From: Escherichia coli
GTDB taxonomy: Bacteria; Pseudomonadota; Gammaproteobacteria; Enterobacterales; Enterobacteriaceae
Assembly (NCBI RefSeq): GCF_001677475.2
Contig: NZ_CP015229.1
Direction: 5' to 3' (one strand)
DNA: 64,000 nucleotides
The position numbers were made by a program, and so were the translations under genes. Under the pieces are notes generated by a model. The model was not told where the DNA came from and did no database searches. It was given only the letters and a program-made list of their open reading frames with translations. Shown in pieces: positions 1,812 through 56,350 of this stretch (positions are counted from its first letter, which is position 1; each line of letters opens with the position of its first letter).

Positions 1812-1844
1812 CCGGCCAGGTATATAGCCTGGCCGGTTTTTATT
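1812..1844 (+). terminator. Rho-independent terminator/attenuator after hcp
   Basis: Perfect 9-bp stem CCGGCCAGG/CCTGGCCGG followed by TTTTTATT. Confidence 0.6.
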
Positions 1845-1867
1845 ATTTGATTTTAAAGGAAATTACA

Positions 1868-2401: not shown

Positions 2402-2404
2402 ATT

Positions 2405-3748: not shown

Positions 3749-4464
3749 CCGACGATATTCTGACGCAACCTGCGGTGAATACCCTGCAATTACAGCCTTC
3801 AATGAGGGGAACAAGGTCGCCTGATAATGACGGTTACGATACGCTCGTCCAGGACAGCCTTCGCAGGGAAGATATAAAGGTGGTGGTTGAAGACGGGCCA
3901 GATTTGAAGCTCCGCTTGGCTGAGATCACTGCTGCTGTGAATCCTCTTCTGGCGGCGGCCAGCCCTCTGTTATGCGCGCTGGCGCAAATGCCCCGTGAAC
4001 TTTCCCCTGGTTTTGTCGAACATTATCGCGCCCTACTGGAGCGTGAAGTCCGCCGGTATCAGACGCTGTGCGACCAGGCAAACCTGCGCCGCGAACATGT
4101 GCTGGCGGTACGTTACTGCGTGTGCACGGCGCTGGATGAAGCTGCCAACAACACCGTCTGGGGGCGACGCGGTGTCTGGGCCGGGAAGAGCCTGCTGGTG
4201 ACTTTTCATGGCGAAAGTGAAGGCGGCATCAAGCTGTTTCAGATAATCGGGCGTCTGGCCGCCAGCTTCCAGGAGCACAGCGATGTACTGGAAATCATTT
4301 ACCACATTCTGGGACTGGGTTTTGAAGGCCGCTACAGTGTACGGCCTGACGGGCGTAAACAACTGGACGATATCCGCCAGCAACTGCTGACTCAACTGGT
4401 CCAGCGTCGCGATCCGATCACGCCGACGCTCTTGCCGGGTTTTGCCGGTGCCGTCAGTGGGTGA
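3745..4464 (+). CDS. tssL: T6SS membrane-complex protein TssL (DotU-like), cytoplasmic domain; ends at in-frame TGA
   Basis: 239 aa, position after tssK; no TM helix in this ORF; next ORF is in the same frame. Confidence 0.75.
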   Translation: MTDDILTQPAVNTLQLQPSMRGTRSPDNDGYDTLVQDSLRREDIKVVVEDGPDLKLRLAEITAAVNPLLAAASPLLCALAQMPRELSPGFVEHYRALLEREVRRYQTLCDQANLRREHVLAVRYCVCTALDEAANNTVWGRRGVWAGKSLLVTFHGESEGGIKLFQIIGRLAASFQEHSDVLEIIYHILGLGFEGRYSVRPDGRKQLDDIRQQLLTQLVQRRDPITPTLLPGFAGAVSG

Positions 4465-5061
4465 ATGCGGCGGATGCGCCGGGTGCCGGTCTGGCTGAGC
4501 GCCGGAATCGCCCTGCTGGTGATGCTGACGCTGTTTGGCCTTTACAGCCACCGGATGAACCTCGCCACCGAAACCGTACAACAGCGTATCGACGCCATTG
4601 GTAAAAATCTTCCGCCGCCACCCGTTCCGGTGCATAAACTGCGGTTGAAAATCCTGCTGGCGAACGAAATCGCCCGTGGCCTGCTGACGGTGGAGGAAGA
4701 TGACCATCACAGCCGTGTAATCTTTCGTGGCGATACGATGTTTATACCGGGGCAGAAAACCGTGAATGATGCGCTGCGCCCGGTGATTGACAAGGCCGCG
4801 CGTGAGATTGCGCGTGTGGGGGGCGCGGTGACGGTGACCGGCCACACGGACAGCCAGCCGATCCACTCCGCTGAATTCCCGTCCAACCAGGTATTGTCGG
4901 AAAAACGTGCGGCAGAAGTAGCTTCGCTGCTGACATCTGGTGGCGTTCCGGCTAGCCGAATTCGGGGTGTCGGTAAAGGGGATACTATGCCGGTGGCTGA
5001 TAATAGTACTAAAACTGGACGAGCGCAGAATCGCCGGGTGGAAATTCTGGTGGTGGAGTGA
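4465..5061 (+). CDS. TM-anchored OmpA/MotB-like peptidoglycan-binding domain protein (TssL C-terminal part / TagL-like)
   Basis: N-terminal TM helix (VPVWLSAGIALLVMLTLFGL) then OmpA-like C-terminus (...VTGHTDSQP...RAQNRRVEILVVE); same frame as tssL. Confidence 0.8.
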   Translation: MRRMRRVPVWLSAGIALLVMLTLFGLYSHRMNLATETVQQRIDAIGKNLPPPPVPVHKLRLKILLANEIARGLLTVEEDDHHSRVIFRGDTMFIPGQKTVNDALRPVIDKAAREIARVGGAVTVTGHTDSQPIHSAEFPSNQVLSEKRAAEVASLLTSGGVPASRIRGVGKGDTMPVADNSTKTGRAQNRRVEILVVE

Positions 5062-5068
5062 ATTAATA

Positions 5069-5755
5069 ATGGAAAAGCTAGAGTGTAATGCGTCTAACCA
5101 TTCGCCAGTGTGGGGAGTAACAGAATTTATATTCTGGAAACTGGCGCCTAAAAAATGGGGGGGAGGCGTAGCATTTGGGCGTTATTTTAAAGATGGTTGG
5201 GTGAAGCATAACGGTCTTTTGATCAATGCAGCTGCAAATGCCTGGCATTTACCTGCCCCCTTACTTGCTGGAGTTTGTTGGATTGAAGTAGGGGGTGATC
5301 CTCAGATTATAGACACGCTGGCATTTGAATTTCGTGCTATGAGTTGGAGTGGGCCTGAATGGGTTGATGAACATATCACAATCGCTTCGAAACCAGAAAA
5401 AACTTCTTTTGGTGCGGTGAGTATGCAATTGCGAACTGCAGCCAGAACACTCGGGCTTGATGAGACTAAAATGGACAACTCTCAGTTGCGTGAGCTGGCA
5501 AATTGTCTCCAGCATGATGTGTTTAATATACAATTAGCTGCAAGACATCTTTATCAATTGGCTGAAAAAGATGGTTTTCAGGTATCCTTACCTCACCTGA
5601 CAAAAGAACAAATAAGAATTATTGGAGCTCGTTATAATCGAGGTGTTTCCCTTAGTCTGGAAAAAATAAAGGAAGATACCAGCTATGGCGATTTTATTAT
5701 AAATAACTGGTTACATTTCTCTAGTTTATTAATAACTACCTGGAAGTCTTCATGA
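5069..5755 (+). CDS. Lytic-transglycosylase/lysozyme-like (SLT-type) protein, T6SS-associated
   Basis: Motifs reminiscent of SLT domains (...WIEVGGDP..., ...FGAVSMQL..., ...GARYNRG...); no signal peptide; ATG with RBS downstream of track start. Confidence 0.45.
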   Translation: MEKLECNASNHSPVWGVTEFIFWKLAPKKWGGGVAFGRYFKDGWVKHNGLLINAAANAWHLPAPLLAGVCWIEVGGDPQIIDTLAFEFRAMSWSGPEWVDEHITIASKPEKTSFGAVSMQLRTAARTLGLDETKMDNSQLRELANCLQHDVFNIQLAARHLYQLAEKDGFQVSLPHLTKEQIRIIGARYNRGVSLSLEKIKEDTSYGDFIINNWLHFSSLLITTWKSS

Positions 5756-6039
5756 GAAAAATAATTCAGATATCAGGGTGGTTATTATTTATTATGGGAT
5801 TGGTCACTATCATGCTTTTTTCCGGGAGTGAGTACCAGTGGATGCAGGATATGGACCCTTCAATAACAGCATTACCTCAGGGAAACGGAAATAGAGATGT
5901 AATCAGAAAATTAATTTATTCTATTTCAGTGGCTATTCAGATTGTTCTTTATTTTCTTTCAGTATCGCGTACAGGAAAGGGATTTTCAGCCCTGGGTATT
6001 TTGCTATTACTGATTACCGCATGGAGCTCTGAACAATAA
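5752..6039 (+). CDS. Small integral membrane protein (2-3 TM helices); possible immunity/accessory
   Basis: 95 aa, hydrophobic helices; overlaps neighbours by ATGA/TAATG junctions. Confidence 0.4.
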   Translation: MRKIIQISGWLLFIMGLVTIMLFSGSEYQWMQDMDPSITALPQGNGNRDVIRKLIYSISVAIQIVLYFLSVSRTGKGFSALGILLLLITAWSSEQ

Positions 6040-9000
6040 TGCAAAAATTTCTCAGTCTGCTGTTTTCCCGCCGCACACTGGCCGTTGTCGGCGTGGTGGT
6101 GCTGGCGTTGCTGGTCTGGTTTATCGGGCCGCTGGTGGCGTTTGACACCTTGCATCCGCTTGCGTCCGTGGGTAGCCGGGTAGTCACTATCGTTCTGTTA
6201 CTGATGTTCCTTGCACTGTGGCTGGTTAACTGGTCGATGAGCATCATTGGCGTTACGGTTCTGTGCCTGGTTATCGGCTTTGTCTCACCGTTGCTGGCCT
6301 TCGGTGATGTTTATCCATTTGCGCCGCTGTGGCTGCGTCTGACGCTTATCGGCCTGATCCTTCTGTCTTATACGCTGTATGGCCTGTACCGATTGTGGCG
6401 GGCGCTGCGTCTGGATGAACAACTGCTGCGCCGTTTCCTGCATCCGCGCGGGGAAGATGTTCCGGTGGCAGGGGAAATTAAAGCCGACTTACGCACCGTC
6501 AGCCATATTGTCACTCGCGCTATTCGGCAACTGAAGCAACTGCGCGTAGACCTGCCGGGTTGGCGTAAGGTGCTGGAAGGAAAGCGTTTTCTGTACGAAC
6601 TGCCGTGGTTCATGGTTATCGGCAGCCCCGGTGATGGTAAAACTACCGCGCTGCTTAACACCGGGCTACAGTTTCCGCTGGCGGAGCAGATGGAGCAGAC
6701 CGCGCATATCCTTACCGTGCCGGGCGGCGGCACGCTGCACTGCGACTGGTGGTTCACCAACGAAGCGGTGCTCATTGACACTGCCGGGCGCTATGCCCGC
6801 CACGATGACGGCGGTGAAATCAGTGCGACCCAGCGCAACGCCGGGGAATGGCAGGGGTTTCTGGGACTGCTGCGTAAACACCGTCCCGGCGCACCGCTGA
6901 ACGGCGTTATCCTGACGCTAAACGTGGCGGATCTGACCGCGCAGTCCCCGGCGGAACGACTGGCTGCCTGTGCGGCTTTGCGTGCGCGGCTGGCTGAACT
7001 GCGTGAGACGCTGGGTATTCGTTTCCCGGTTTATCTGGTTGTCACTAAGATGGATCTGCTGCCGGGCTTTACGGAGTATTTCCGTGGGCTGACCAGTCAC
7101 CTGCGTGCCCAGGTCTGGGGCTTCACCCTGCCATACAGCCGCAGGCGTCACGCCAGCGATCCGCAGTCGTTGCATGCGCTCTGTGGCCAGGAACTGGCAA
7201 ATCTGACGCTGCGGCTGGATCAGGGGCTGGATACCCGGTTGCAGGAAGAGTACGACCTTAAAAGCCGTCAACGGCTCTACCGCTTTCCGCGCGAATTTGC
7301 CGCGCTGGGCGCGCCGCTGCTGGAAGCCATTGAACAGATTTTCCTCGATTCAAAATTTGACGCCACTCAGCTTAACAACACCCTACGCGGCGTATTTTTT
7401 ACCAGCGCCGCACAGGCGCAGGCAGACGCGGTGGCCGATCAGACGGGCATCTGGCAGCGCTTTGTCCGGGCGATCAAAGGGAAAGTGGAGTCACCTTCTC
7501 ATACCTTACCGGACGGCAACCGCAGCTATTTTCTTCATGACCTACTGACCCAGTTTATCTTCCGTGAAGCACACCTGGTGGAGCCGAATCTTCAATGGGC
7601 CTGGCGTTATCGCCTGCTGCGTACTGGCGGGCATCTGCTGGTACTAGCGTTGGCTTTCTGGTTGTGGCAGGGAATGCAGGGCAGCCAGCAGGGTAACAGC
7701 GGCTATCTGAATGAAATCGCCAGCCGGACGGTCCAACTGGATGGTGACGTCAAAGCCTATACCGGAAAACCTGCTATGCAGCCTGTCCCAGTCCTGTTGA
7801 ACCAGGCGCGGGCGCTCTCTGCCTGGCCGGGGCTGGACCCGGACTCACCGCCGCTGGCCTGGCGTTATGGTCTTTACAGCGTTCCGCCAGTAATGGAGAG
7901 CGTCGCATCCCTGTATGACCGTCTGCTGGACCAGCTCCTATTGCCGCCACTGGTGAAGCGCATGGAATATGTGCTTTCAGATGCCATTGCTCGTCAGGAC
8001 AGCAAAGCCGCGTATGACGCTCTGCATGTTTATCTGCTGCTGAATCTTGATAAAGACCACGAGGACAAATACAACGCAGCGGAGATCCACGCCTGGGTAC
8101 TGAACGATCTGGAAAACCGCGATAGCGTGGCGGAGTTCGGCGGCCGTGCAGCAGTGCTGGAACATATCGACGCCCTGTTTGACGGCAGCCGTGTGGTGCA
8201 TTCGCCTTATGACAAAGATGAGGGACTGATCCGCATGGCGCGGGCTTTCCTTGACGGTCATACCAGCACCGAGCGTATCTATACTCGAGCCCTGGCTTCC
8301 ATGGAGAGCGAAGCACCGCAGGAGTTTTCGCTGGTTCGCGCGGTGGGCGCGGATGCGGGGACGGTTTTTGTCCGCACGGATGGCGCGCCACTGGATAGGG
8401 GCGTGCCCGGCATCTTTACTCGCGAAGGCTACCGGGAACTGTTCGACAAACGGCTGTCGGAGTTTGTCGCCTCCGCATCAGCGGACGACGCCTGGGTAAT
8501 GGGCCGGGAAAACGCGCAAAAAAAAACGACTGATATTGTGATGAGCCAGTTGCCGGGGCAGGAACTCCCGGTTACCCGTGAGGTACGCCGCCTGTATCTG
8601 GCTGAATATGCCCGCCGCTGGCAGGATTTTCTGGCTAGTATTCACAGCATCAACAGTGCCGGGGAAGACGGTAGTCCCGGACTGGCGTATGACCTTCAGG
8701 TGCTTCGCACACTGGCCTCGCCTGACTCACCTCTGATGCGCCTGAGTAAAGCGGTGGTGGAGCAGACCACGCTGGTACCGCCGCTGGATGCGCAGGCCAG
8801 ACAAAAACAAATGGCCCAGCGCGCGCAGGACCGGCTCTCCGGTAATGCGGGTAAAGCAGTGCAGACGGCAAAGCTGTTGCAGGATATCCACCCGGAAGAG
8901 CGGCTGGAAAAATCGCTGGTGGATGACCGTTTCGCCGCTCTGCGGGAAGTGGTTTCCGGGCGGACGGACAGTGGACAGGGGGGCGGGGCGCCGCAGTTAA

Positions 9001-26377: not shown

Positions 26378-26382
26378 GGGCT

Positions 26383-26440
26383 TTTCTCCCTCTCCCTTTC
26401 AGGGAGAGGGCCGGGGTGAGGGTAACAGCCTGCACCTTTT
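26383..26440. repeat. Half copy (inverse orientation) of GC-rich palindromic intergenic repeat; likely gmhA terminator hairpin
   Basis: CCCTCTCCC-TTTCA-GGGAGAGGG next to GGGGTGAGGG; same motifs as the copies at 46.6, 54.0 and 56.3 kb. Confidence 0.4.
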
Positions 26441-28883: not shown

Positions 28884-29633
28884 ATGTCTTTGCCGTCGAT
28901 TCCCTCTTTTGTGTTGTCGGGATTATTGTTGCTTTGCTTGCCGTTTTCTTCATTTGCCAGCGCCACCACATCACATATCTCTTTCAGCTACGCCGCCCGC
29001 CAGCGGATGCAAAACCGTGCGCGTTTATTAAAACAGTACCAAACCCATCTGAAAAAACAGGCCAGCTATATTGTGGAAGGCAATGCCGAAAGCAGAAAGG
29101 CGCTGCGCCAGCACAACCGCGAACAGATAAAACAGCATCCAGAATGGTTTCCTGCGCCGCTCAAGGCGAGTGACAGACGCTGGCAGGCGCTGGCGGAGAA
29201 CAACCATTTCTTAAGCAGCGACCATCTACACAACATCACCGAAGTGGCGATTCACCGCCTGGAGCAGCAGCTTGGTAAGCCTTACGTCTGGGGCGGTACG
29301 CGGCCCGATCAAGGCTTCGACTGTAGCGGGTTGGTTTTTTATGCCTACAACAAGATCCTCGAGGCGAAGCTCCCGCGTACGGCCAATGAGATGTATCACT
29401 ACCATCGGGCAACGATTGTGGCGAATAACGACCTGCGCCGGGGAGATTTGCTGTTTTTCCATATTCACAGCCGTGAGATTGCCGATCATATGGGCGTGTA
29501 TCTGGGAGACGGGCAATTTATCGAATCGCCACGCACCGGGGAAACCATACGGGTAAGCCGGTTAGCCGAACCTTTCTGGCAGGATCATTTTTTGGGCGCG
29601 CGACGGATTTTGACGGAAGAGACGATTTTGTAG
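28884..29633 (+). CDS. yafL: NlpC/P60-family lipoprotein YafL
   Basis: Signal peptide; NlpC/P60 core ...GFDCSGLVFYAY...; matches YafL. Confidence 0.8.
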   Translation: MSLPSIPSFVLSGLLLLCLPFSSFASATTSHISFSYAARQRMQNRARLLKQYQTHLKKQASYIVEGNAESRKALRQHNREQIKQHPEWFPAPLKASDRRWQALAENNHFLSSDHLHNITEVAIHRLEQQLGKPYVWGGTRPDQGFDCSGLVFYAYNKILEAKLPRTANEMYHYHRATIVANNDLRRGDLLFFHIHSREIADHMGVYLGDGQFIESPRTGETIRVSRLAEPFWQDHFLGARRILTEETIL

Positions 29634-29635
29634 AA

Positions 29636-29725
29636 CGGATAAGGCGTTCACGCCGCATCCGGCGGTTATGCGCTGGTGCCTGATGCGACGCTGGCGCGTC
29701 TTATCAGGCCTACGAGTCTGAGAAT
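29636..29725. repeat. REP element(s)
   Basis: GCCGGATGCGGCGTGAACGCCTTATCC-type palindromic units. Confidence 0.55.
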
Positions 29726-29809
29726 TTTTTGCGAGCAGCTTTCCCGATGTAACACAACCTAATTGTCGACTTTTCCTTTTTCTCTTACCGTTGAGAAATA
29801 GGAGTCGCT

Positions 29810-30304
29810 ATGTCTGAATATCGTCGTTATTACATCAAGGGGGGAACATGGTTTTTCACGGTAAATTTACTGAATCGTCGAAGCCAGCTTTTGACCACCC
29901 AGTACCAGACGCTCCGTAACGCCATTGTTAAAGTTAAGCGAGCCAGACCTTTTGAAATTAACGCCTGGGTAGTTTTGCCGGAGCATATGCACTGTATCTG
30001 GACATTACCCGAAAGCGATGATGATTTTTCCTCTCGCTGGCGGGAGATTAAAAAGCAATTTACCCATGCTTGTGGATTGAAAAATATCTGGCAACCGCGT
30101 TTTTGGGAGCACGCCATCCGCAATACGAAAGATTATCGCCATCATATTGATTATATTTATATAAATCCAGTAAAGCATGGTTGGGTAAAGCAGGTGAGTG
30201 ATTGGCCATTCTCAACGTTCCATCGCGATGTCGCGCAAGGGTTATATCCCATCGATTGGGCGGGAGACGTAACGGATTTTAGTGCCGGGGAGCGTATCAT
30301 TTTA

Positions 30305-30307
<3 letters not shown>
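29810..30307 (+). CDS. rayT: REP-associated tyrosine transposase RayT
   Basis: 165 aa matching RayT/YafM; flanked by REP elements. Confidence 0.88.
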
Positions 30308-30510
<203 letters not shown>

Positions 30511-30518
30511 CCTGATGC

Positions 30519-32595
<2,077 letters not shown>

Positions 32596-32612
<17 letters not shown>

Positions 32613-36904: not shown

Positions 36905-37020
<116 letters not shown>

Positions 37021-44004: not shown

Positions 44005-44100
44005 ACCCAGATGTTTGTTTCTTGCCGGATGCGGCGTAAACGCCTTATCCAGCCTACAAGACGTGATCGATCCGTAGGCCTGATAAGCGAAGCGCATCAG
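44005..44100. repeat. REP pair
   Basis: GCCGGATGCGGCGTAAACGCCTTATCC and CGTAGGCCTGATAAGCGAAGCGCATCAGGCAC. Confidence 0.5.
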
Positions 44101-44113
44101 GCACTTCTGTGGT

Positions 44114-46558: not shown

Positions 46559-46599
46559 GGTGTTTGGGTGAGTTAAGGGGTGAATGTGATGAATGTGCG

Positions 46600-46725
46600 C
46601 GCTGATGCCCTCACCCCGACCCTCTCCCACAGGGAGAGGGAGAGAACCAGCGCCGATTTTAATACCGTGCTCGATCGGTTCCCTCGCCCCTTTGGGGAGA
46701 GGGTTAGGGTGAGGGGCAAAGCGCG
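46600..46725. repeat. GC-rich ~120-bp palindromic intergenic repeat (full copy)
   Basis: GCCCTCACCCCGACCCTCTCCCACAGGGAGAGGG ... GGGGAGAGGGTTAGGGTGAGGGG; near-identical copies at 53.96 and 56.24 kb. Confidence 0.5.
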
Positions 46726-46736
46726 CACAGAGCGAC

Positions 46737-47666
46737 TCACGTCAGCAGCGAAAACGCTGAAAGCAGCGGCTCTGCCGCACATAACGACTGAATTTGCTGG
46801 CGAATAAACAGCGCATTTTCACTGGTCCGCCAGCGTTCAAACATGGCGAAGAGGGCGAAAATATCCTCCTTCCGCAGCGGAGAACCATCCAGCGTCCATA
46901 AACTGATTAACGTGCGGATAAGATAAAAATCGCACACCAGCGGGAAATAATCCGCCCCGTCTGCCTGCCCGATCGCATCGTGGTAAACGCGGTAGATCAG
47001 GTAATTACGCAAAATCCAGGGTGAAGTGGTGAAATGCTGCTGCCAGGTAGTTTGCCACTGCGCCTGAAGCTGCTGATGTAACAGGGCTTCGCTGTTGGCG
47101 TCATGCAATGTCAGTAAAGAAACCTGCAACGGCAGCGAGGCTTTGCGCGGGCTTTCCGGCAGAATCGACCAGTCAAACGCAAAACTTCCGAGCAGCGTCA
47201 CCAGCTGGCGTGCCAGCTGTGGCACAGGTGGCAACTGGGCGAACTGTGCCTGTAGCGTACCTTTTCGCGCATGGTCGGCCAGCGCCTGCGGCAGCGTCGT
47301 CAAACGGGCCAGAGTATCGCCATTCTTGCCCGGCATTTTACTGGCGCGGGAGAGCAGGATACCGACGGCATACAGTGACAATTCCGGGGTTAAATCGGCG
47401 AGCGTAAGGGTGCTCAAAATGACCTGGTTTAATATCACATCGCGTGCGGAAAGCTCACTGGCACTCTCTTCCATAGACCGATAGGTGAGCTGTAATTCAA
47501 ACGCACTGGCGTCGTTGAGCACCGCTTCGCAGCTTTCTGGCTCTGTAAGCATCAGACTCAGGCGAATTTCATTTTTCCATACCTTGCGGACATACAAAGG
47601 CGAACCAGGATGTTGTGCAATAAATTTGCGCACAAATTCAGGTTCGTAACATTCAATAAAACTCAT
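46737..47666 (-). CDS. Hypothetical protein within Flag-2 locus
   Basis: Roughly 310-aa ORF, no recognised motifs; start uncertain. Confidence 0.45.
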   Translation of the reverse strand: MSFIECYEPEFVRKFIAQHPGSPLYVRKVWKNEIRLSLMLTEPESCEAVLNDASAFELQLTYRSMEESASELSARDVILNQVILSTLTLADLTPELSLYAVGILLSRASKMPGKNGDTLARLTTLPQALADHARKGTLQAQFAQLPPVPQLARQLVTLLGSFAFDWSILPESPRKASLPLQVSLLTLHDANSEALLHQQLQAQWQTTWQQHFTTSPWILRNYLIYRVYHDAIGQADGADYFPLVCDFYLIRTLISLWTLDGSPLRKEDIFALFAMFERWRTSENALFIRQQIQSLCAAEPLLSAFSLLT

Positions 47667-47793
47667 AGGAGGCTTCCAGTCTTTAATGCTGAACAGGAAT
47701 TGCAATTACCGTGCCGGAAAATTTTTTAATATAAAACAAAGAATTGTTTTTCAGGCGGAAAATCCATTTCCGCTATGGGGGAAGGAATGGTCA

Positions 47794-48222
47794 TTATTCC
47801 TGATAAATAAAATCCGCTTCGCTGCCTAAAAAAGACTGAATAAATTCATACTGACGAATCAACAATTCACCGTTTTTATCGTTATACGCCTTACAGCGTT
47901 CGGCTTTTTGTTCAAGTCGTTGCCACAAGCGTTGTGCCGCCTCTTTTTGTACGGCGGGTAACCAGTTAAAAATCTGCTCTAAACCTTCCCGATTGACACT
48001 GACGCCGAGAAATTTCAGCAGGCTGTGGCGTTGTTGGCTGTGGCTGTTTAACTGATCGTAGTGATGCATTATCTCATCATTCACCGCCAGTAATTCCTCA
48101 CTCGCGCGGCGAATCATGCAGATCCGCTGACGATGGAGAAGTTCGCGCAGGGAATCGTAAAGCGCGTCATCGTCACGAATTCCCTGCAACAACGCCTTCA
48201 CCTGTTGTAACCGGATACTCAC
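47794..48222 (-). CDS. lfgN: Flag-2 chaperone LfgN (FlgN homologue)
   Basis: 142 aa, position after flgM homologue. Confidence 0.65.
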   Translation of the reverse strand: MSIRLQQVKALLQGIRDDDALYDSLRELLHRQRICMIRRASEELLAVNDEIMHHYDQLNSHSQQRHSLLKFLGVSVNREGLEQIFNWLPAVQKEAAQRLWQRLEQKAERCKAYNDKNGELLIRQYEFIQSFLGSEADFIYQE

Positions 48223-48234
48223 TTCATCGGCCTC

Positions 48235-48513
48235 TTAGTTCTGGAAAAAACTCAGCATGTCGCTGGCTAACTGTTCGGTGTCCACTTGCAGGCTGCCGGA
48301 GGCCAGCATCGCCTGCATTTGCTCCACTTTGTCGCTGTCGATATCGCTCTCTTGCTGGTCGTTCAGCGTTTGCTGGGCAGACTGCAATCCCGCCTGGGTA
48401 ATGTCGTCGGCGCTTAGCGTCGTGGTGGTGGTCGCTGTGCTTTTACGCGGCTGGCTGGAGCCTGCCGTTGTGGCTGTCGGGCGATTGCCTGGCATAGTCG
48501 GGGTGATTTTCAT
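48235..48513 (-). CDS. lfgM: Flag-2 anti-sigma factor LfgM (FlgM homologue)
   Basis: 92 aa; Thr/Ser-rich N-terminus and FlgM-like C-terminal helix region. Confidence 0.7.
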   Translation of the reverse strand: MKITPTMPGNRPTATTAGSSQPRKSTATTTTTLSADDITQAGLQSAQQTLNDQQESDIDSDKVEQMQAMLASGSLQVDTEQLASDMLSFFQN

Positions 48514-48593
48514 CGCAACCTCGTCTCGGTATTTAGGTGGGTTACTCCGGTAAAGCGGTTAACAGGCGGCAAAACTTTAATCGCCTGCGCAAA

Positions 48594-49331
48594 TTACTCC
48601 GCGCCTACCGTCGTCACCACGCCGCTTTCCGCCACCATCGCGCTGATGACCCGCTGGCTGCTGGCGTTACGTACTTTCACCATCTCGCCTTTGCGACCAT
48701 TTTTCAGCGCCACGCCGGGCATCGAGGCGGTGATCCCCGCGTTCTGGAAAACAATCATCACCGGCTGATCGCGCTCGACCAGCACCGGAGACACCAGTTC
48801 TTCTTTGGTAAGCGGCCTGCCTGGTTGCAGCGCGTGCTTACTGCTTAAACCAATCGCGTCATCGAGCTCCATCAACACATCGCGACGCTGGGCGCTGACG
48901 TTGTAGGGCTTCAGCTCCACATCATTCGCGGTGAGAGGCGTATCGCGGGCAATCAGTGACTTCGCCATCACCACCGGCACCAGAACATCCGGGCGCACCG
49001 CCACGTTCATCTGCCAGCTTTGCGGGCAACTGACGGTGAAGTTCATGCGGTTGAGGGCGATTTCCGCAGGCGATGTCAGCGTGACGCCGGGTGTTGTAAT
49101 ACAGGGCGCGGCGGTCGCAATCTGCGACGGAATATAGACCTTAAAGGTGTAGCGATAGTCATGCCATTGCCGCTGTTGCGCCAGCGATTCAATTTCCTGG
49201 CTCGCGGCATTCAGCACCTGGGCGTTGACTTGTTCCCGCGCGCTGTGTTGCACGGGGTGGACGGCGGCGTAGCCCGGTAAGGCCAGCACCAGGAGGAAGA
49301 ACAACTTCCGCCTGCAAAATTGAAAACTCAT
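48594..49331 (-). CDS. lfgA: Flag-2 P-ring assembly chaperone LfgA (FlgA homologue)
   Basis: 245 aa, signal peptide, FlgA-like C-terminal domain; divergent from lfgB. Confidence 0.8.
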   Translation of the reverse strand: MSFQFCRRKLFFLLVLALPGYAAVHPVQHSAREQVNAQVLNAASQEIESLAQQRQWHDYRYTFKVYIPSQIATAAPCITTPGVTLTSPAEIALNRMNFTVSCPQSWQMNVAVRPDVLVPVVMAKSLIARDTPLTANDVELKPYNVSAQRRDVLMELDDAIGLSSKHALQPGRPLTKEELVSPVLVERDQPVMIVFQNAGITASMPGVALKNGRKGEMVKVRNASSQRVISAMVAESGVVTTVGAE

Positions 49332-49360
49332 AAACCCTTTCTCATCAGTGACTTAAAAAA

Positions 49361-49376
49361 TGGCACGGCGATTGCT
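49361..49376 (+). promoter_or_regulatory. Sigma-54 (-24/-12) promoter candidate for lfgB operon
   Basis: TGGCAC-GGCGA-TTGCT matches TGGCAC-N5-TTGCW, about 35 bp upstream of the lfgB start. Confidence 0.55.
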
Positions 49377-49412
49377 TAGCGTATGCGTATTGAAGCAGGA
49401 GTGACGCAGGAA

Positions 49413-49748
49413 ATGGGGATCAGTTTTCAACAGGCATTGGGAGTGCATCCGCAGGCAGTGAAGTTACGTCTTGAGAGGACCGAGCTACTGACTGCGAATC
49501 TGGCGAATGTCGATACGCCAAATTTCAAGGCTAAAGATATTGATTTTGCCAGGGAGATGCAACGGGCAAATAACGTGGCGGTGGATGTCCAGTACCGCGT
49601 GCCGATGCAGCCGTCGGAAGATGGCAACACCGTGGAACTGAACAGCGAACAGGCGCGGTTTTCACAAAATAGTATGGATTATCAAAGCAGTTTGACCTTT
49701 CTGAATCTGCAAATTAGCGGCATCAGAGAGGCCATTGAAGGGAAATAA
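49413..49748 (+). CDS. lfgB: Flag-2 rod protein LfgB (FlgB homologue)
   Basis: About 111 aa with ...ANLANVDTPNFKAKD... rod-protein N-terminal motif. Confidence 0.85.
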   Translation: MGISFQQALGVHPQAVKLRLERTELLTANLANVDTPNFKAKDIDFAREMQRANNVAVDVQYRVPMQPSEDGNTVELNSEQARFSQNSMDYQSSLTFLNLQISGIREAIEGK

Positions 49749-49750
49749 GC

Positions 49751-50182
49751 ATGTCATTTACTGATATCTATCAGATTTCCGGCTCGGCGATGACGGCGCA
49801 AACGCTACGTCTGAATACCGTCGCCAGTAACCTGGCGAATGCTAATGCGCCCGCCAGCAGCGAGGCGCAGGCGTATAAAGCGCGCAGCCCGGTGTTTGCG
49901 GCGGTGTATCACCACAGCTTGCTGGCGGGTACACATCGTCATGCCATTGACGGTGCCAGCGTGCAGGTGCAGGACGTGCTGCAAACCGGCGGGGCGGTGA
50001 AACGCTATGAACCGCATTCACCTCTGGCGGATGCTAACGGGGATGTCTGGTATCCCGACGTCAACGTGGTGGAACAGATGGCGGACATGATGTCGGCTTC
50101 GCGCGATTTTGAAACCAACGTCGATGTGCTCAACAACGTGAAAAGTATGCAGCAAAGTTTGCTGAAACTGGGAGAAGCCTGA
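49751..50182 (+). CDS. lfgC: Flag-2 rod protein LfgC (FlgC homologue)
   Basis: 143 aa, ...SNLANANAP... motif. Confidence 0.9.
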   Translation: MSFTDIYQISGSAMTAQTLRLNTVASNLANANAPASSEAQAYKARSPVFAAVYHHSLLAGTHRHAIDGASVQVQDVLQTGGAVKRYEPHSPLADANGDVWYPDVNVVEQMADMMSASRDFETNVDVLNNVKSMQQSLLKLGEA

Positions 50183-50895
50183 TGAATACCCTGGCGCTGA
50201 ATGCGCAATCGCCGCAGCCGACCGCCACGGCGGAAAGCAATAATGTGGCGGCCAGCGACACGACAAGCAGCAGCGATAGCTCGCCCGTCGATACCTTCCT
50301 GACGCTGTTTGTCGCCGAGATCCAAAACCAGGACCCGACCGACCCAACCGACGCCACCGAATATATCGACCAGCTTTCGTCGATGGCGCAGGTGGCGATG
50401 ATGGAAGAGATGAGCGTGCAGGCCAACACCAACGCGGTGCTGATGAGCAACATTCAGGTGATGGCGCTCGGCAACCTGGTGGGCGACGACATTATGGTAC
50501 AGACCTCCGCCTTGCAGGTAAGCGACCAGACTATTAACGGTCGCGCCACGCTGGACGATGCCTGTACCACTGCCGATCTCCACTTTACCGATGCCGCAGG
50601 CGATGACTACACCGTTTCTCTGATCCCGCAGGGCAGTTCGTCTGTCGGGCCAGGCCAGGTCGATTTCTCGATTAATCCGGCGGATTACGGTATCCCGCCG
50701 GGCGATTACGACGTCTCGGTAGTCACCAACACCGGGGAAGAAGAGGTGCCGATTGAAGTCTCCGGCGAAGTGGAAGATGTGCGCATCCCGCTCGACGGCA
50801 GCTCTCCGGTGCTCAACGTTGCAGGCGTCGGCGAAGTGCCGTTCACCATGATTAGCCAGTTTGGCGTACCCGATGCCGACAGTGATGTGGCGTGA
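50182..50895 (+). CDS. lfgD: Flag-2 hook capping protein LfgD (FlgD homologue)
   Basis: 237 aa; FlgD-like N-terminus (...DTFLTLFVAEIQNQDPTDP...). Confidence 0.8.
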   Translation: MNTLALNAQSPQPTATAESNNVAASDTTSSSDSSPVDTFLTLFVAEIQNQDPTDPTDATEYIDQLSSMAQVAMMEEMSVQANTNAVLMSNIQVMALGNLVGDDIMVQTSALQVSDQTINGRATLDDACTTADLHFTDAAGDDYTVSLIPQGSSSVGPGQVDFSINPADYGIPPGDYDVSVVTNTGEEEVPIEVSGEVEDVRIPLDGSSPVLNVAGVGEVPFTMISQFGVPDADSDVA

Positions 50896-50995
50896 TGTCC
50901 GGTGCCAAATTGCCTGATGCGCTTCGCTTATCAGGCCTACATGAATCTGCATGGTTTTGTAGGCCGGATAAGGTGTTCACGCCGCATCCGGCAAA
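50895..50995. repeat. REP pair
   Basis: GCCTGATGCGCTTCGCTTATCAGGCCTAC and GTAGGCCGGATAAGGTGTTCACGCCGCATCCGGC. Confidence 0.5.
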
Positions 50996-51038
50996 ACAAC
51001 GGGCACGCTGTCAAAATTTGAATTAACAGGAAGACACA

Positions 51039-52241
51039 ATGAGTTATGAAATTGCCGCAACGGGGCTGAATGCCGTTAACGAACAGCTGGACGGGATCAG
51101 TAACAACATCGCCAACGCCGGAACGGTGGGCTATAAGTCGATGACCACCCAGTTTTCCGCCATGTATGCCGGAAGTCAGGCGATGGGCGTCAGCGTGGCG
51201 GGCACCGCGCAAAGCATTTCGCGCGGCGGTTCGCTGGTCTCCACCGGTAACGCGCTCGATTTAGCGATTAACAACGATGGCTTTTTTGTTACCTGCGACA
51301 GCGCGGGCAACATTTCCTACACCCGCGCCGGATCGTTTGAAACCGACAAAAACGGCTATATCGTCAACGCCTCAGGCGCTTATTTGCAGGGCTACCCGGT
51401 CGATGACAGCGGCACTTTGCAAACCGGTACAGTCACAGATATCCAGATCAAAACCGGTAATATTCCGGCGCAGGCCAGCAGCAGCCTGACTTTTACCGCT
51501 AACTTCAACGCCAGCGATGAAGCTATCGACCGCACCACCGTACCGTTCGACCCGACCAACAGCAGCTCGTACACCGACAGCTACACCACCACGGTGTATG
51601 ACTCATTAGGCAACGAACATTCGGTATGCCAGTACTTCACCAAAACCAGCGATAACACCTGGGAAGTACAGTACACCTTCGACGGTCAGCAGCAGACCGG
51701 CGTTCCGGCGACGACGTTAACCTTCGACCCGAACACCGGGAAGCTGACTTCGCCAACCACGCCGCAGACCATTGAGTTTCAGACCGACGCAGCCGCACCC
51801 ATCGACTTAACCGTCGATTACTCGACCTGTACGCAATACGGCTCGGACTTCTCGGTCACCACCAACTCTGCCAACGGCTACGCTTCCGCGACTCAAAACG
51901 GTGTGCAGGTCGATGACGATGGCAAAGTTTACGCTACCTACAGCAACGGCGAGCGCATGTTGCAGGGGCAGGTGGTGCTGGCGACCTTCCCGAATGAAAA
52001 CGGCCTGGAGGCAGTGAGCGGCACCGCGTGGGTACAAACGGGCGAATCCGGCACCCCGCTGATTGGCGTTCCCGGCTCCGGCACCTGCGGCACGCTGTCG
52101 TCGGGCGTGCTCGAAAGCTCTAACGTCGATATCACCAGCGAACTGGTCAACCTGATGACCGCCCAGCGTAACTATCAGGCCAACACCAAAGTTATCGCTA
52201 CCAGCACGCAGCTCGATGACGCGCTGTTCCAGGCAATGTAA
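51039..52241 (+). CDS. lfgE: Flag-2 hook protein LfgE (FlgE homologue)
   Basis: 400 aa, conserved N- and C-terminal rod/hook motifs. Confidence 0.88.
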   Translation: MSYEIAATGLNAVNEQLDGISNNIANAGTVGYKSMTTQFSAMYAGSQAMGVSVAGTAQSISRGGSLVSTGNALDLAINNDGFFVTCDSAGNISYTRAGSFETDKNGYIVNASGAYLQGYPVDDSGTLQTGTVTDIQIKTGNIPAQASSSLTFTANFNASDEAIDRTTVPFDPTNSSSYTDSYTTTVYDSLGNEHSVCQYFTKTSDNTWEVQYTFDGQQQTGVPATTLTFDPNTGKLTSPTTPQTIEFQTDAAAPIDLTVDYSTCTQYGSDFSVTTNSANGYASATQNGVQVDDDGKVYATYSNGERMLQGQVVLATFPNENGLEAVSGTAWVQTGESGTPLIGVPGSGTCGTLSSGVLESSNVDITSELVNLMTAQRNYQANTKVIATSTQLDDALFQAM

Positions 52242-52978
52242 TGGATCGCTTGATTTATACCGCCCTGAGCGGTGCTTCTCAGACCCTGTACGAGCAGCAG
52301 ATTAGCGCAAACAACCTGGCGAACGTCAACACCAATGGTTTTCGCGCCGATATGGCAATGGCAACCAACGACAAGGTGAAAGGCGGCGGCTTCGACACGC
52401 GCTATATGGCGCAGGAAGGGGCCAGCGGCGTGAACGACAGCACGGGTGTAGCGGAGAAAACCGAACGCCCGCTGGACGTGGCGATTCAGGGCGCGGGTTA
52501 CATTGCGGTGCAGGATAAAAACGGCAACGAAGTTTATACCCGCAACGGCAACATTCAGCAGGACGACCAGGGTCAACTGACTATCGACGGCAATCTGGTG
52601 CTGGGGGATAACGGGCCGATCATTCTGCCGCCGAACGCCATTGCTTCGTTTGGCAGCGACGGCACGTTGTCGGTGACGCCCGATGACGGCGACGTGACCG
52701 CGACGATGGATATCGACCGCCTGAAGCTGGTGGATATTCCGGTCGCTAACCTGGCGAAAAACGGCGAAGGGATGCTGGTAACTGCCGACGGCGTACCGGC
52801 TCAGCGCGATGAAAACATCAAAGTTAGCGGTGGTTTTCTGGAGGGCAGTAACGTCTCGGCGGTGAGTGAGATGATGTCGTCCATCGCCATGAACCGCCAG
52901 TTCGAAGCGCAGATCAAGATGATGAAAACCGCCGAAGATATCAGCGACGCGGGCAACCGCTTATTGCGCGGCTCGTAA
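52241..52978 (+). CDS. lfgF: Flag-2 rod protein LfgF (FlgF homologue)
   Basis: 245 aa rod-family protein. Confidence 0.88.
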   Translation: MDRLIYTALSGASQTLYEQQISANNLANVNTNGFRADMAMATNDKVKGGGFDTRYMAQEGASGVNDSTGVAEKTERPLDVAIQGAGYIAVQDKNGNEVYTRNGNIQQDDQGQLTIDGNLVLGDNGPIILPPNAIASFGSDGTLSVTPDDGDVTATMDIDRLKLVDIPVANLAKNGEGMLVTADGVPAQRDENIKVSGGFLEGSNVSAVSEMMSSIAMNRQFEAQIKMMKTAEDISDAGNRLLRGS

Positions 52979-52979
52979 C

Positions 52980-53115
52980 CGCACATCGTAGGCCGGATAA
53001 GGCGTTCACGCCGCATCCGGCAGTTATGCGGTGGCGCCTGATGCGACGCTTTGCGTCTTATCAGGCCTACAAGCCTGTGCCCAAACCGTAGGCCGGATAA
53101 GGCGTTCACGCCGCA
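52980..53115. repeat. REP cluster (three units)
   Basis: Three copies of GCCGGATAAGGCGTTCACGCCGCATCCGGC-type units in alternating orientation. Confidence 0.55.
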
Positions 53116-53156
53116 TCCGGCAATCGGCGGCAAAAAACAACACGGAATTTACCACC

Positions 53157-53942
53157 ATGAACGCAGCACTATGGAGCAGCAAAACCGGCCTCTCAGCGCA
53201 GGATGCTGAAATGAGCGCGATTGCCAACAACATCGCCAACGTTAACACCACCGGCTTCAAGCGTGACCGGGTGATGTTTCAGGATCTGTTCTACCAGACC
53301 CAGGAAGCGCCGGGCGCGATGCTCGACCAGAACAACATCATGCCGACCGGGCTGCAATTCGGTAGCGGCGTGCGCATTGTCGGCACCCAAAAAACCTTCA
53401 CCGAAGGCAACGTCGAAACCACCGACAACGCGATGAATGTCGCCATTATGGGGCAGGGGTTTTTGCAGGTGCAAAAGGCTAATGGCGATATCGCCTATAC
53501 CCGCGACGGCAATTTGCAGGTGAACGCCGACGGCGTACTGACCAACTCGCAGGGCTTGCCGTTGCAGCCGGAAATCGATGTTCCGGCGGGGGCGACCAAT
53601 GTTGCGTTTGGCGAAGATGGTACGGTGACGGCGATTCTTCCTGGCGACAGCGACGTGACCGAGTTAGGGCAACTGACGCTGGTTAACTTCGCTAACCCGG
53701 CGGGGCTTTCCGCTGAGGGTGACAACCTCTATCTGGAAACCGCCGCCAGCGGTCAGCCGACCGAAGGTGTGCCGGGCGAAGATGGGCTTGGCACTTTGCA
53801 GGACAATGCACTGGAAGGCTCGAACGTGGATATCGTCAACGAAATGGTGGCGATGATTACGGTGCAACGCGCGTACGAGATGAACGCCAAAATGGTGTCG
53901 GCAGCGGACGATATGTTGCAGTACATCAGCCAGACGCTGTAA
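53157..53942 (+). CDS. lfgG: Flag-2 distal rod protein LfgG (FlgG homologue)
   Basis: About 261 aa from MNAALWSSKTGLSAQ...; upstream part of track ORF is REP sequence. Confidence 0.9.
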   Translation: MNAALWSSKTGLSAQDAEMSAIANNIANVNTTGFKRDRVMFQDLFYQTQEAPGAMLDQNNIMPTGLQFGSGVRIVGTQKTFTEGNVETTDNAMNVAIMGQGFLQVQKANGDIAYTRDGNLQVNADGVLTNSQGLPLQPEIDVPAGATNVAFGEDGTVTAILPGDSDVTELGQLTLVNFANPAGLSAEGDNLYLETAASGQPTEGVPGEDGLGTLQDNALEGSNVDIVNEMVAMITVQRAYEMNAKMVSAADDMLQYISQTL

Positions 53943-53954
53943 GGGCGTGGGGGC

Positions 53955-54085
53955 AATGTGTGGCCTGATGCCCTCACCCCGGCCCTCTCCCACAGGGAGA
54001 GGGAGAAAAGCGGCGCACGATGTAACAACGCGCACAGGTCAGTCCCCTCGCCCCTTCGGGGAGAGGGTTAGGGTGAGGGGGAACA
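53955..54085. repeat. GC-rich ~120-bp palindromic intergenic repeat (full copy)
   Basis: Same element as at 46.6 kb. Confidence 0.5.
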
Positions 54086-54148
54086 AACAGCTCCGCACCC
54101 ACCAAACAACCGGCCACCCCGTGGCCTGCAACACTAAACAGGCAGAAC

Positions 54149-54814
54149 GTGAAAAATTATCTCTGGCTGGTGGCACTGCTTCCCCTGCTTAGCGGGTGTG
54201 AATCGCAGGCTATTCTGGTCAAAAAAGACGACGCATACTTTGCGCCACCGAAAACCGAAGCGCCGCCTCCGGCAGACGGGCGTGCCGGAGGCGTGTTTGA
54301 AACTGGCTACAACTGGTCGCTCACCGCCGACCGACGAGCTTACCGTGTGGGCGATATCCTGACGGTGATTCTCGAAGAATCGACCCAGTCGAGCAAACAG
54401 GCGAAAACCAACTTTGGCAAAAGCAACAGTGTCGATATCACCGCGCCAACGGTATTCGGTCACACCAAAAATAAGCTTTCCGGTTCCATCGACGCCAACC
54501 GCGACTTTGACGGCAGCGCCACCTCCCAGCAGCAGAATAGCCTGCGCGGGGAGATCACCGTTTCCGTCCATGCGGTGCAGCCCAACGGCATCCTGGAAAT
54601 TCGCGGCGAGAAATGGCTCACCCTCAACCAGGGTGATGAGTACATCCGCTTGAGCGGCCTGGTACGCGCCGATGATATCCAGAACGACAACTCGGTTTCC
54701 TCCCAGCGGATCGCCGATGCCCGCATCTCCTATGCCGGACGCGGCGCGTTAAGCGACGCCAACGCCGCAGGTTGGCTGACGCGGCTGTTTAACCATCCTC
54801 TGTTCCCGATTTAA
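54149..54814 (+). CDS. lfgH: Flag-2 L-ring lipoprotein LfgH (FlgH homologue)
   Basis: Lipobox LLSGC; FlgH-like. Confidence 0.88.
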
Positions 54815-54828
54815 TGCCGGAGAGTGCA

Positions 54829-55929
54829 ATGCAAAACTGGATAAAGACGGTGATGATCGCCGTAAGCCTGGTGCTGCCCGGCGTGGCGCTGGCGCAATCG
54901 CTGGAGTCGCTGGTCAACGTACAGGGCGTGCGTGAAAACCAACTGGTCGGCTATAGCCTGGTGGTCGGCCTTGACGGCACTGGCGATAAAAACCAGGTCA
55001 AATTCACTAACCAGACCATCACCAATATGCTGCGCCAGTTTGGCGTGCAACTGCCGAATAAAATCGACCCGAAGGTGAAAAACGTCGCCGCGGTGGCGGT
55101 GAGCGCCACGCTGCCGCCGATGTACTCGCGCGGGCAAACCATTGACGTCACCGTCTCGTCGATTGGCGATGCCAAAAGTATTCGCGGCGGCACTTTGCTG
55201 CTGACCCAACTGCACGGCGCAGATGGCGAAGTTTATGCCCTGGCGCAGGGTAGCGTGGTGGTCGGCGGGATGAATGCCACCGGGGCCAGCGGCTCAAGCG
55301 TAACGGTTAATACGCCAACCGCCGGGTTAATTCCCAACGGCGCGACGGTGGAGCGCGAGATCCCCAGCGATTTTCAGATGGGCGATACCATCACCCTCAA
55401 CCTGAAACGTCCGTCGTTTAAAGATGCCAACCACATTGCAGCAGCGATCAACGCCTCGTTTGGCGGCATCGCCACCGCGCAGAGTTCCACCAACGTTACC
55501 GTGCGTGCCCCCACCAGCCCCGGCGCGCGGGTGGCGTTTATGTCGCAACTGGATGATGTGCAGGTGCAGGCGGAGAAAATCCGCGCCCGCGTGGTGTTTA
55601 ACTCACGCACCGGCACGGTGGTAATGGGTGACGGTATCGCGTTGCATGCGGCGGCGGTGTCGCACGGCAGTCTTACTGTCTCGATTAACGAAACCAGCAA
55701 CGTCAGCCAGCCGAATGCCTTTGCCGGTGGGCGCACGGCGGTGACGCCGCAGAGCAATATCGCGGTGAATCATGCGCGCCCTGGCGTGGTGAGCTTGCCG
55801 GAGTCGAGCAGCCTGAAAACGCTGGTGAATGCCCTGAACAGTTTAGGCGCAACGCCGGACGACATTATGTCGATTTTGCAGGCGCTGCATGAAGCGGGCG
55901 CGCTGGATGCCGACCTGGAGGTGATCTGA
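54829..55929 (+). CDS. lfgI: Flag-2 P-ring protein LfgI (FlgI homologue)
   Basis: Signal peptide; FlgI-like; RBS GGAGAG before internal ATG. Confidence 0.9.
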
Positions 55930-56228
55930 TGAAAGTGAACGCCAGCGGTGGGATTGACGGCAGCGACGCGTTAATGGGGCCGAAGGTTCAGGCCAATGAT
56001 ATCAAGCAGGCCGCGGAACAGTTCGAGGCGATTTTTTTACGCAACATGTTGAAAGAGATGCGTAAAACCAACGAGTTGTTTGATTCGAAAGATAACCCAT
56101 TTAACAGCGATTCGGTGCGCATGATGCAGGGGTTTTATGACGATGAGTTGTGTAACACCCTGGCGCAGCAGCACGGGATTGGGATTGCGGCGATGATTGT
56201 AAAGCAGTTGTCGCCGAAGGGGAAATGA
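55929..56228 (+). CDS. lfgJ: Flag-2 FlgJ-like rod-binding protein lacking muramidase domain (LfgJ)
   Basis: 99 aa corresponding to the FlgJ N-terminal rod-binding domain only. Confidence 0.65.
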   Translation: MKVNASGGIDGSDALMGPKVQANDIKQAAEQFEAIFLRNMLKEMRKTNELFDSKDNPFNSDSVRMMQGFYDDELCNTLAQQHGIGIAAMIVKQLSPKGK

Positions 56229-56231
56229 GGG

Positions 56232-56350
56232 GAGGTGCACGCTGATGCCCTCACCCCGGCCCTCTCACTAGGAGAGGGAGCAGACTGGTGCCGTATTTAA
56301 CAATGTGCTCGATCGGTCCCCTCTCCCTTGAGGGAGAGGGTTAGGGTGAG
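56232..56350. repeat. GC-rich ~120-bp palindromic intergenic repeat (full copy, diverged centre)
   Basis: GCCCTCACCCCGGCCCTCTCACTAGGAGAGGGAG ... GAGGGAGAGGGTTAGGGTGAGGGGGC. Confidence 0.5.

Follow-up and report, generated by a model that had tools for sequence, protein, structure and literature searches.

Paired BoxC-type repeats in the intergenic spacers of an Escherichia coli flagellar locus

We analysed a stretch of 64,000 nucleotides (the window) from contig NZ_CP015229.1 of the Escherichia coli assembly GCF_001677475.2, and in it a family of short, GC-rich palindromic repeats lying in and near a flagellar gene cluster. Seven arms of one repeat are present, arranged as three composites (A, B and C) and one solo arm. 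Judged by their sequence, these copies belong to BoxC, the catalogued intergenic repeat of E. coli and relatives that is also called PIT, TMECO or HPG1/HPG2. We consider it very probable that the BoxC copies of the window are passively inherited, structure-prone filler DNA, selfish or neutral, and not dedicated regulators.

Membership in the BoxC family

Holder et al. (2015, PMC4666352) define TMECO (a triplex motif whose name refers to its abundance in E. coli) as CCCTCNCCC-N3-6-GGGNGAGGG-N3-GGGNGAGGG[G/T/C], and equate it with BoxC (Bergler 1992) and with PIT (potential intrastrand triplex; Hoyne & Maher 2000). They list 23 copies in K-12, of type A (TTA second loop) or type B (CCG), with one A and one B on opposite strands at five places. 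Kaplan et al. (2016, PMC5100583) described HPG1 (GGGAGAGGGTTAGGGTGAGGG) and HPG2 (GGGAGAGGGCCGGGGTGAGGG) as putative G-quadruplex motifs and noted opposite-strand pairs; these 21-mers are the type-A and type-B cores, respectively. BoxC also figures in the list of known stem-loop families of E. coli drawn up by Petrillo et al. (2008), who cite earlier literature for a unit of 56 bp and for 32 copies.

Six of the seven arms in the window fit the published TMECO pattern, three of them being identical to K-12 entries and three more lying one edit away; the seventh, the left arm of composite C, is degenerate and four edits off. Left arms all carry a CCG/TCG loop on the minus strand (type B), right arms all carry a TTA loop on the plus strand (type A), and all four loci are intergenic and non-coding. 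A genome-wide search and a comparison with catalogued repeats had been proposed in a first-pass annotation of this DNA, which guessed at an already described E. coli family without naming one. The guess was correct. Of 5426 complete E. coli genomes, 5361 contain the family by a BLAST search with copy B; they hold it at 1 to 30 places each (median 16), and 3556 have at least one near-full-length composite. The fit to the pattern, the identity to K-12 entries and the wide presence in E. coli together establish membership in BoxC. The copies share with the family its three blocks (CCCTCNCCC, GGGNGAGGG, GGGNGAGGG), the A and B loop types, the intergenic position and the pairing of A with B on opposite strands, the family running to about 20 copies per E. 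coli genome. Nothing essential sets them apart; they lie in an accessory flagellar locus (Flag-2, see below), and in all three composites the G-rich ends point outward.

A search of the window with GGGAGAGGGNNRGGGTGAGGG, allowing up to two mismatches, gave seven matches against 0.00 expected from 100 dinucleotide-preserving shuffles. Allowing three mismatches returned the identical seven sites and nothing further (0.6 expected), and the hairpin core CCCTCNCCC-N3-7-GGGNGAGGG gave six matches against none expected. Since looser searching adds no sites, the first-pass annotation had already caught every copy in the window, and each of the four loci is found where it had been placed or a few bases outside. 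A repeat finder places the copies in the direct-repeat families D5, D7, D10 and D13, and copy A contains a 50-nt inverted repeat (I11) that is 74% complementary, with its halves 36 nt apart. The G+C content of the elements is 62-65%, against 53.7% for the window. The copies do form one family of structured, palindromic intergenic repeats, as had been proposed, but to call them near-identical was an overstatement: pairwise identity over the full composites is 80.1% (A/B), 81.2% (A/C) and 75.2% (B/C). Homology between composites covers the central spacer as well as the arms. Divergence had been assigned to a ACAGGGAGAGGG versus CTAGGAGAGGG loop; in fact the copies differ most in their central spacer and outer flanks. 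The terminal motifs GCCCTCACCCC...GGGGTGAGGG are present as described, but the elements run about 12 nt further out, where a further inverted repeat is found (TGTGCGCGCTGATG...CAAAGCGCGCACA in copy A).

Composite A (46594-46729, 136 bp) consists of a type-B unit on the minus strand, a spacer of about 40 nt and a type-A unit on the plus strand. Its type-B core, CCCTCTCCCTGTGGGAGAGGGTCGGGGTGAGGGC (46607-46640, minus), fits the TMECO pattern and is identical to K-12 no. 20, while its type-A core, CCCTCGCCCCTTTGGGGAGAGGGTTAGGGTGAGGGG (46681-46716, plus), is identical to K-12 nos 7, 11 and 15 and includes the HPG1 21-mer. Composite B (53957-54096, 140 bp) likewise joins a type-B arm (minus) to a type-A arm (plus). 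The former has a core at 53970-54003 that is identical to K-12 nos 1 and 4 and includes the HPG2 21-mer; the core of the latter, at 54045-54080, fits the pattern and lies one edit from K-12 nos 6, 7, 11, 15 and 23. In composite C (56234-56367, 134 bp) the type-B core (56247-56278, minus) has suffered a 2-nt deletion and substitutions in the hairpin, so that the strict pattern fails, the nearest entries being K-12 nos 1 and 4 and the 21-mer having one mismatch. Its type-A core (56319-56353, plus) fits and is one edit from K-12 nos 2 and 17. The solo arm is a type-B BoxC unit on the plus strand (26381-26435, core 26388-26423). It has a T-rich lead at its 5' end and a AACAGCCTGCAC tail at its 3' end, and differs from K-12 no. 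10 by one edit.

The arms carry conserved extensions outside the TMECO core of 34-36 nt. Drawn by eye from the sequences and not computed, these are a T-rich (T)TTCT lead in type B units, roughly GTGCTCGATCGGTC as the lead of type A units, and roughly nAnCAGCGCGCAC after the core in both. Extended units thus defined measure about 55-62 nt, which agrees with the 56 bp given for BoxC in older literature, and a composite is two full BoxC units, head to head and on opposite strands, with a short, AT-richer centre between them, so that the whole element is a long imperfect palindrome. In the window the units meet 5' end to 5' end, with the G-rich ends outward in all three composites and the 50-nt inverted arms separated by about 36-40 nt. 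Going by the strands and coordinates that Holder et al. give in their Table 1, we read one of the five K-12 pairs (lldD-trmL) as having its G-rich ends outward and four as having them inward; the sequences of lldD-trmL and ygfF-gcvP were inspected directly for this arrangement. The K-12 copy between yjdP and phnP is a partly deleted example of the outward type.

The MG1655 RefSeq annotation has no repeat feature at the yjdP-phnP copy, and the family name was therefore taken from the literature. No Rfam family covers the elements at gathering or E-value thresholds, and the best models for copy A, plant microRNA precursors at 33 bits against a threshold of 168 and 30 against 90, are meaningless. 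The copies and their A/B pairing are already known and, the family having been catalogued since the 1990s, the finding is an ordinary one. The copies matter little for the window; they need only be annotated as BoxC/TMECO, lest they be taken for terminators, small RNAs or mobile elements of a new kind.

Genomic setting and alleles at the sites

Over the whole of its stretch from 46 to 57 kb the window can be aligned, at 94% identity, with a locus that occurs in 1090 of the 5426 complete E. coli genomes. That locus is annotated with flgN, flgM, flgA, a basal-body protein, flgC, FlgD, flgE, FlgF, flgG, flgH, FlgI, a rod-binding protein, flgK and flgL, and adjoins fadE, lpcA, yafJ, dinJ, yafL, rayT and a truncated flhA. 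The position next to fadE-lpcA-yafJ-rayT is reportedly that of the secondary flagellar (Flag-2) cluster (Ren et al. 2005). Pfam finds FlgG, FlgH, the rod-binding protein and a GT2 glycosyltransferase beside the elements, and the gene calls of NJSK01000030.1 (GCA_002516285.1; 100% identical over 7368 bases) agree with this picture. The Flag-2 locus is deleted in K-12, so the window copies are missing from the K-12 lists. The architecture of the locus has been described (PMC6993521); that comparative paper has no passage on intergenic or palindromic elements, hence no prior note of these copies.

The elements had been reported to lie between flagellar genes, which holds for composites B and C, set between structural genes, but not for composite A. 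Composite B fills 68% of the 206-bp spacer between FlgG and FlgH, and composite C 64% of the 208 bp that separate the rod-binding (FlgJ-like) gene from FlgK. Composite A takes up 76% of a 178-bp spacer that runs from the start of the GT2 glycosyltransferase gene (46558, minus) to the stop of the upstream hypothetical gene (46737, minus); it lies in the cargo region VR1 of the locus, where the hypothetical neighbour adjoins flgN. The solo arm occupies a core-genome spacer, lpcA(gmhA)-yafJ. At the density of K-12, 0.25 BoxC loci would be expected in 64 kb, against the four found (Poisson P = 1.3e-4). Directly after element C, at about 56378-56404, we noticed TAAGAATC-N11-GCCGCTTT, kept in all four aligned site-C alleles, which resembles the sigma-28 (flagellar class 3) consensus and may serve the FlgK gene as a weak promoter. 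In that case element C would stand at the end of an operon and not inside one.

Site occupancy varies among the E. coli strains that carry the locus. Counting as carriers those genomes that cover at least 80% of a query of about 0.5 kb spanning the site, we found the element at site A in 745 genomes (others have unrelated sequence), at site B in 193 (others have one REP, as in O26:H11, or two) and at site C in only 33 (e.g. our locus L005). Most others have one REP at site C (L001), whereas SMS-3-5 has three and one O158:H23 strain a short, repeat-free allele with no clean junction and no direct repeat. The alternative alleles are replaced, by REP/BIME or by unrelated sequence, and are not simply empty. 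Holder et al. (2015, PMC4666352) report an excess of intergenic change around TMECO sites, with which the polymorphic sites and the local enrichment agree; nothing here is qualitatively new. The Flag-2 spacers do offer a natural experiment, in that a BoxC pair, a REP, a triple REP or a short allele stands at the same positions according to lineage.

The orthologous copies decay in place. E. coli A10 has copy A at the same site with 7 of 136 positions changed (our own count from the alignment), a divergence similar to that of the flanks (94% identity), and some of the changes fall in the G-tract core, e.g. GGGGACAGGG and GGGGGAGGGG. In E. coli SCU-171 (L007:4378-4494) the solo unit is orthologous, and 6 nt are missing from the C-rich half of its hairpin. 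Deletions that disrupt the hairpin have struck both copy C and the solo arm of E. coli.

REP/BIME elements resemble BoxC in being short, GC-rich extragenic palindromes of two subtypes that pair inverted, and they use the same intercistronic slots. They differ in sequence: the BoxC copies lack the REP consensus (GCCGGATGCGGCG...CTTATCCGGCCTAC), the REPs of the window form separate repeat families, and the REP pairs of the window match Rfam naRNA4 (RF02564), which the BoxC copies do not. REP/BIME copies are found in the lfgD-lfgE (50908-50994) and lfgF-lfgG (52984-53126) spacers of the window, so that palindromic repeats, BoxC pairs and REP/BIME together, occupy four spacers within a single flagellar gene cluster. 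At lfgG-lfgH and lfgJ-lfgK, other E. coli have REP/BIME in place of the BoxC pair. Further copies lie at 36911-37014, 44016-44106 and 62051-62090.

Predicted structure and possible roles

In RNA folding each composite is predicted to form, on either strand, one long inter-arm hairpin (-63 to -89 kcal/mol, z-scores of -4 to -9). For the transcribed strands the values are -88.6 kcal/mol and z -8.9 (A), -66.7 kcal/mol and z -4.05 (B), and -67.8 kcal/mol and z -4.3 (C), while the solo arm gives a 10-pair hairpin only (z -1.5). Allowing G-quadruplexes in ViennaRNA left the minimum-energy hairpin of the composites unchanged, and a G-quadruplex in the transcript was rejected on that ground. Neither strand has a T-run after any copy, and a scan of 44-58.5 kb returned 26 terminator-like sites, none of which overlaps an element. 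Because no U-tract follows them, the composites are not canonical intrinsic terminators, and the earlier suggestion that they may add terminators is not supported. They recall Rho-independent terminators as GC-rich stem-loops placed after a stop codon, but lack the 3' U-tract and have a stem several times longer than is typical.

The reading we prefer, that the BoxC copies are filler, would work as follows. The copies would be inherited passively as structure-prone intergenic DNA. A transcribed composite would fold into an imperfect hairpin of roughly 45-55 pairs with no U-tract, which could at most act as REPs do, as a barrier to exonucleases at a 3' end or as a weak pause site. In the DNA itself the palindrome would make the spacer prone to deletion and replacement, and this would explain why REP/BIME or other sequences stand in the same spacers elsewhere. 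A dedicated regulatory role is unlikely because published tests of the family were negative, the A10 copy decays like its flanks, and deletions have damaged the hairpins.

REP sequences can stabilise upstream mRNA, and BIMEs can attenuate transcription. A possible effect of this kind of the 3' hairpin on mRNA decay is the main alternative. In its full form this explanation holds that the hairpin within the operon protects the upstream 3' end or attenuates read-through, and so sets the FlgG:FlgH and FlgJ:FlgK ratios; we regard it as possible and rather unlikely. It draws on the position of all three composites between co-directional genes, right after a stop codon, on the great stability of the predicted folds, and on the hairpin-forming REP/BIME that occupy the same spacers in other E. 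coli and the lfgD-lfgE and lfgF-lfgG spacers of the window itself. Against it stand the lack of a U-tract after any copy, a decay at about the rate of the flanks, and the dispensability of the elements, since some strains have unrelated sequence at site A or the short, repeat-free allele at site C. Moreover, PIT/BoxC showed neither promoter nor terminator activity and left RNA polymerase unaffected, as Holder et al. (PMC4666352) summarise Hoyne & Maher (2002); by the same summary it blocked DNA polymerase in vitro and had no effect in vivo.

The cores are perfect G3-N3-G3-N3-G3-N3-G3 motifs and have the sequence potential for a triplex or a G-quadruplex. A second alternative, which we think improbable, is that the G-rich strand switches between a purine triplex or G-quadruplex and the hairpin or duplex, stalling replication or transcription and thereby giving variability or regulation. 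Triplex formation in vitro is backed by circular dichroism and nuclear magnetic resonance, and is accompanied by the excess variability around TMECO, in the results that Holder et al. (2015, PMC4666352) give on these points; circular dichroism also backs a hairpin/G-quadruplex equilibrium in those of Kaplan et al. (2016, PMC5100583), and all three sites are polymorphic among E. coli. However, dimethyl sulfate footprinting in vivo revealed no protection of the kind that a triplex should give (Holder et al. 2015, PMC4666352), and where both arms are present the thermodynamic model favours the inter-arm hairpin by a wide margin over a G-quadruplex. Any palindromic repeat would explain the variability of the sites equally well.

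Spread of the composites and further observations

Taking one genome per species, we searched for exact cores in the B...A arrangement (CCCTCACCCCNNCCCTCTC-N55-85-GGGAGAGGGTTAGGGTGAGGG), which was found in at least 120 places. The matches listed include, from isolates, Pseudomonas nitritireducens (25 loci in one genome), P. fragi and Pseudomonas sp. PDM18 (many in each), Enterobacter sp. Ag1, Kluyvera, Pantoea, Rhizobium leucaenae, Devosia, Asticcacaulis and Polaromonas. They also include metagenome bins labelled Deltaproteobacteria, Planctomycetota, Verrucomicrobiia and Peregrinibacteria, assignments that are less secure than those of isolates. Among these matches exact cores occur in three classes of Proteobacteria by isolates, and in Planctomycetota, Verrucomicrobiia and a candidate phylum by bins only. 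The cores are fixed by the search pattern, while the spacer is lineage-specific. Of 70 distinct hairpin loops among the matches listed, 46% add at least one Watson-Crick pair to the stem, against 16% in shuffles, so palindromy is maintained beyond the core. As 3610 TMECO across 262 proteobacterial genomes were already reported by Holder et al. (PMC4666352), the wide spread is an extension of known data and not a discovery. Copy-rich genomes include Enterobacter asburiae LF7a, with 143 TMECO, and P. nitritireducens.

Such a distribution could suggest a mobile element, and the first-pass annotation had called the repeats MITE-like (after miniature inverted-repeat transposable elements). The shape agrees, as terminal inverted repeats are present in the composites. 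At sites A, B and C we found no clean empty site and no clear target duplication among the E. coli alleles compared, which are replaced alleles, and no transposase among the 2107 open reading frames (ORFs) of the 120 loci fetched around composite matches in other bacteria. Six of the ORF clusters that recur there were examined by Pfam and belong to large paralogue families (ABC ATPases, short-chain dehydrogenases, chemoreceptors, aldehyde dehydrogenase and sigma-54 activator), and the genes bracketed by two composites are an M20 peptidase and one unassigned ORF. That the A+B composite is an active or recent non-autonomous element of MITE or REPIN type, moved in trans by a putative enzyme, therefore seems to us quite unlikely, in spite of its many copies, the differences in presence and absence between strains, the recurrence of the architecture across distant hosts, and a central spacer that is homologous across unrelated loci (A, B, C and K-12 yjdP-phnP). 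The window copies are only 75-81% alike and hence old, 45 of the 77441 places found in E. coli are on plasmids, and Holder et al. (2015, PMC4666352) found no link of TMECO to transposons, phages or plasmids.

The known MITEs ERIC/IRU (RU-1), YPAL (RU-2) and Correia are similar in size (about 100-170 bp), in having terminal inverted repeats and a stable stem-loop, and in being intergenic and co-transcribed; BoxC differs in that neither TA or another clear target duplication nor a cognate insertion sequence (IS) element was found for it. ERIC itself was rejected, as the ERIC2 primer sequence has no match in the window with up to three mismatches. So was RU-3 (Delihas 2007), whose printed 103-nt sequence is a REP pair (gccggatgcggcgtaaacgcc...) unrelated to the window copies; the Delihas 2008 review does not mention BoxC.

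REP/BIME elements are mobilised by RAYT, the REP-associated tyrosine transposase, and REP doublets that form hairpins are reported as REPINs (Bertels & Rainey 2011). BoxC composites resemble REPINs in having two inverted short palindromes with a short spacer, one long hairpin and many intergenic copies. They differ in that copies 75-81% alike give no evidence of recent proliferation here, and in that a flanked RAYT gene was not found: no RAYT-type gene is known for BoxC, and none is present among the 120 loci fetched in other bacteria, whole genomes lying outside this search. The window does have a 165-aa ORF at 29810-30307 (plus) that is orthologous to E. coli rayT (yafM); it is flanked by REP/BIME (29626-29730 and 30293-30524) and not by BoxC, and Flag-2 lfhA (30519-32612, minus) begins just beyond.

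The shared spacer shows that the composite at K-12 yjdP-phnP and those of the window were copied as a whole. We advance, as a speculation that we ourselves doubt, the idea that the A+B composite of about 100-135 bp, and not the unit of 36-56 bp, is the real unit of spread, REPIN-like, copied by a putative enzyme and moved between distant bacteria. If this were true, the composite would compete in Escherichia with REP/BIME for the same intercistronic slots, and either the two would have a target preference in common or their roles at the RNA level would be interchangeable. A chance or low-complexity resemblance between unrelated copies, for which the G/C-rich repetitive composition and nothing more could be cited, is practically excluded and already refuted by the alignments, given seven matches where none were expected, 75-81% identity over about 135 nt that include a non-repetitive spacer, and identity to published family members.

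Several points weigh against our view of the BoxC copies as neutral filler. Their local clustering is left unaccounted for by it. The palindromy kept beyond the core, which it also leaves unexplained, hints at constraint or active copying, as does the recurrence of exact cores in distant bacteria. Finally, the negative tests of Hoyne & Maher, cited here from the summary of Holder et al. (PMC4666352), concern single units and may not have covered the head-to-head composite, which forms a much longer hairpin. The first-pass annotation had itself foreseen that the element might prove to be a catalogued repeat with no effect on flanking transcription: catalogued it is, and the lack of effect holds, by the cited literature, for single units only. 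The BoxC family was described in 1992 and restudied in 2000, 2002, 2015 and 2016.

Two of the metagenome bins had arrangements of their own. In the Deltaproteobacteria bin VGSJ01 (L115-L123, e.g. L115:5349-5592) at least nine copies, 96-100% identical, of a repeat of about 240 bp have terminal inverted repeats (CAATGCGGTTCACTTA...TAAGTGAACAGCATTG) and an apparent flanking duplication of about 10 bp. The repeat sits inside another short repeat and has a BoxC-type A+B composite in its middle, and several contigs end within it; considered as a candidate IS element, it was rejected as such, being a MITE with the composite as internal cargo. In the Planctomycetota bin VGYW01 (L038:1-213, L039:1721-1933) tandem B-type units are followed by A-type units with a 45-nt period, clustered arrays that recall those of BIMEs and were not seen in Escherichia.

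As to the host, identity to the best of the 5426 complete E. coli genomes is only about 97% for the core genes fadE-yafL and about 94% for the Flag-2 region. On the core-gene identity, the genome probably represents a divergent Escherichia lineage, somewhat apart from the sequenced E. coli set. The first 9000 nucleotides of the window (1-9000) hold, by E. coli annotation, the type VI secretion genes tssM, tssK, tssL, tssJ and hcp, which have matches in 145 of the 5426 complete genomes at about 96% identity.

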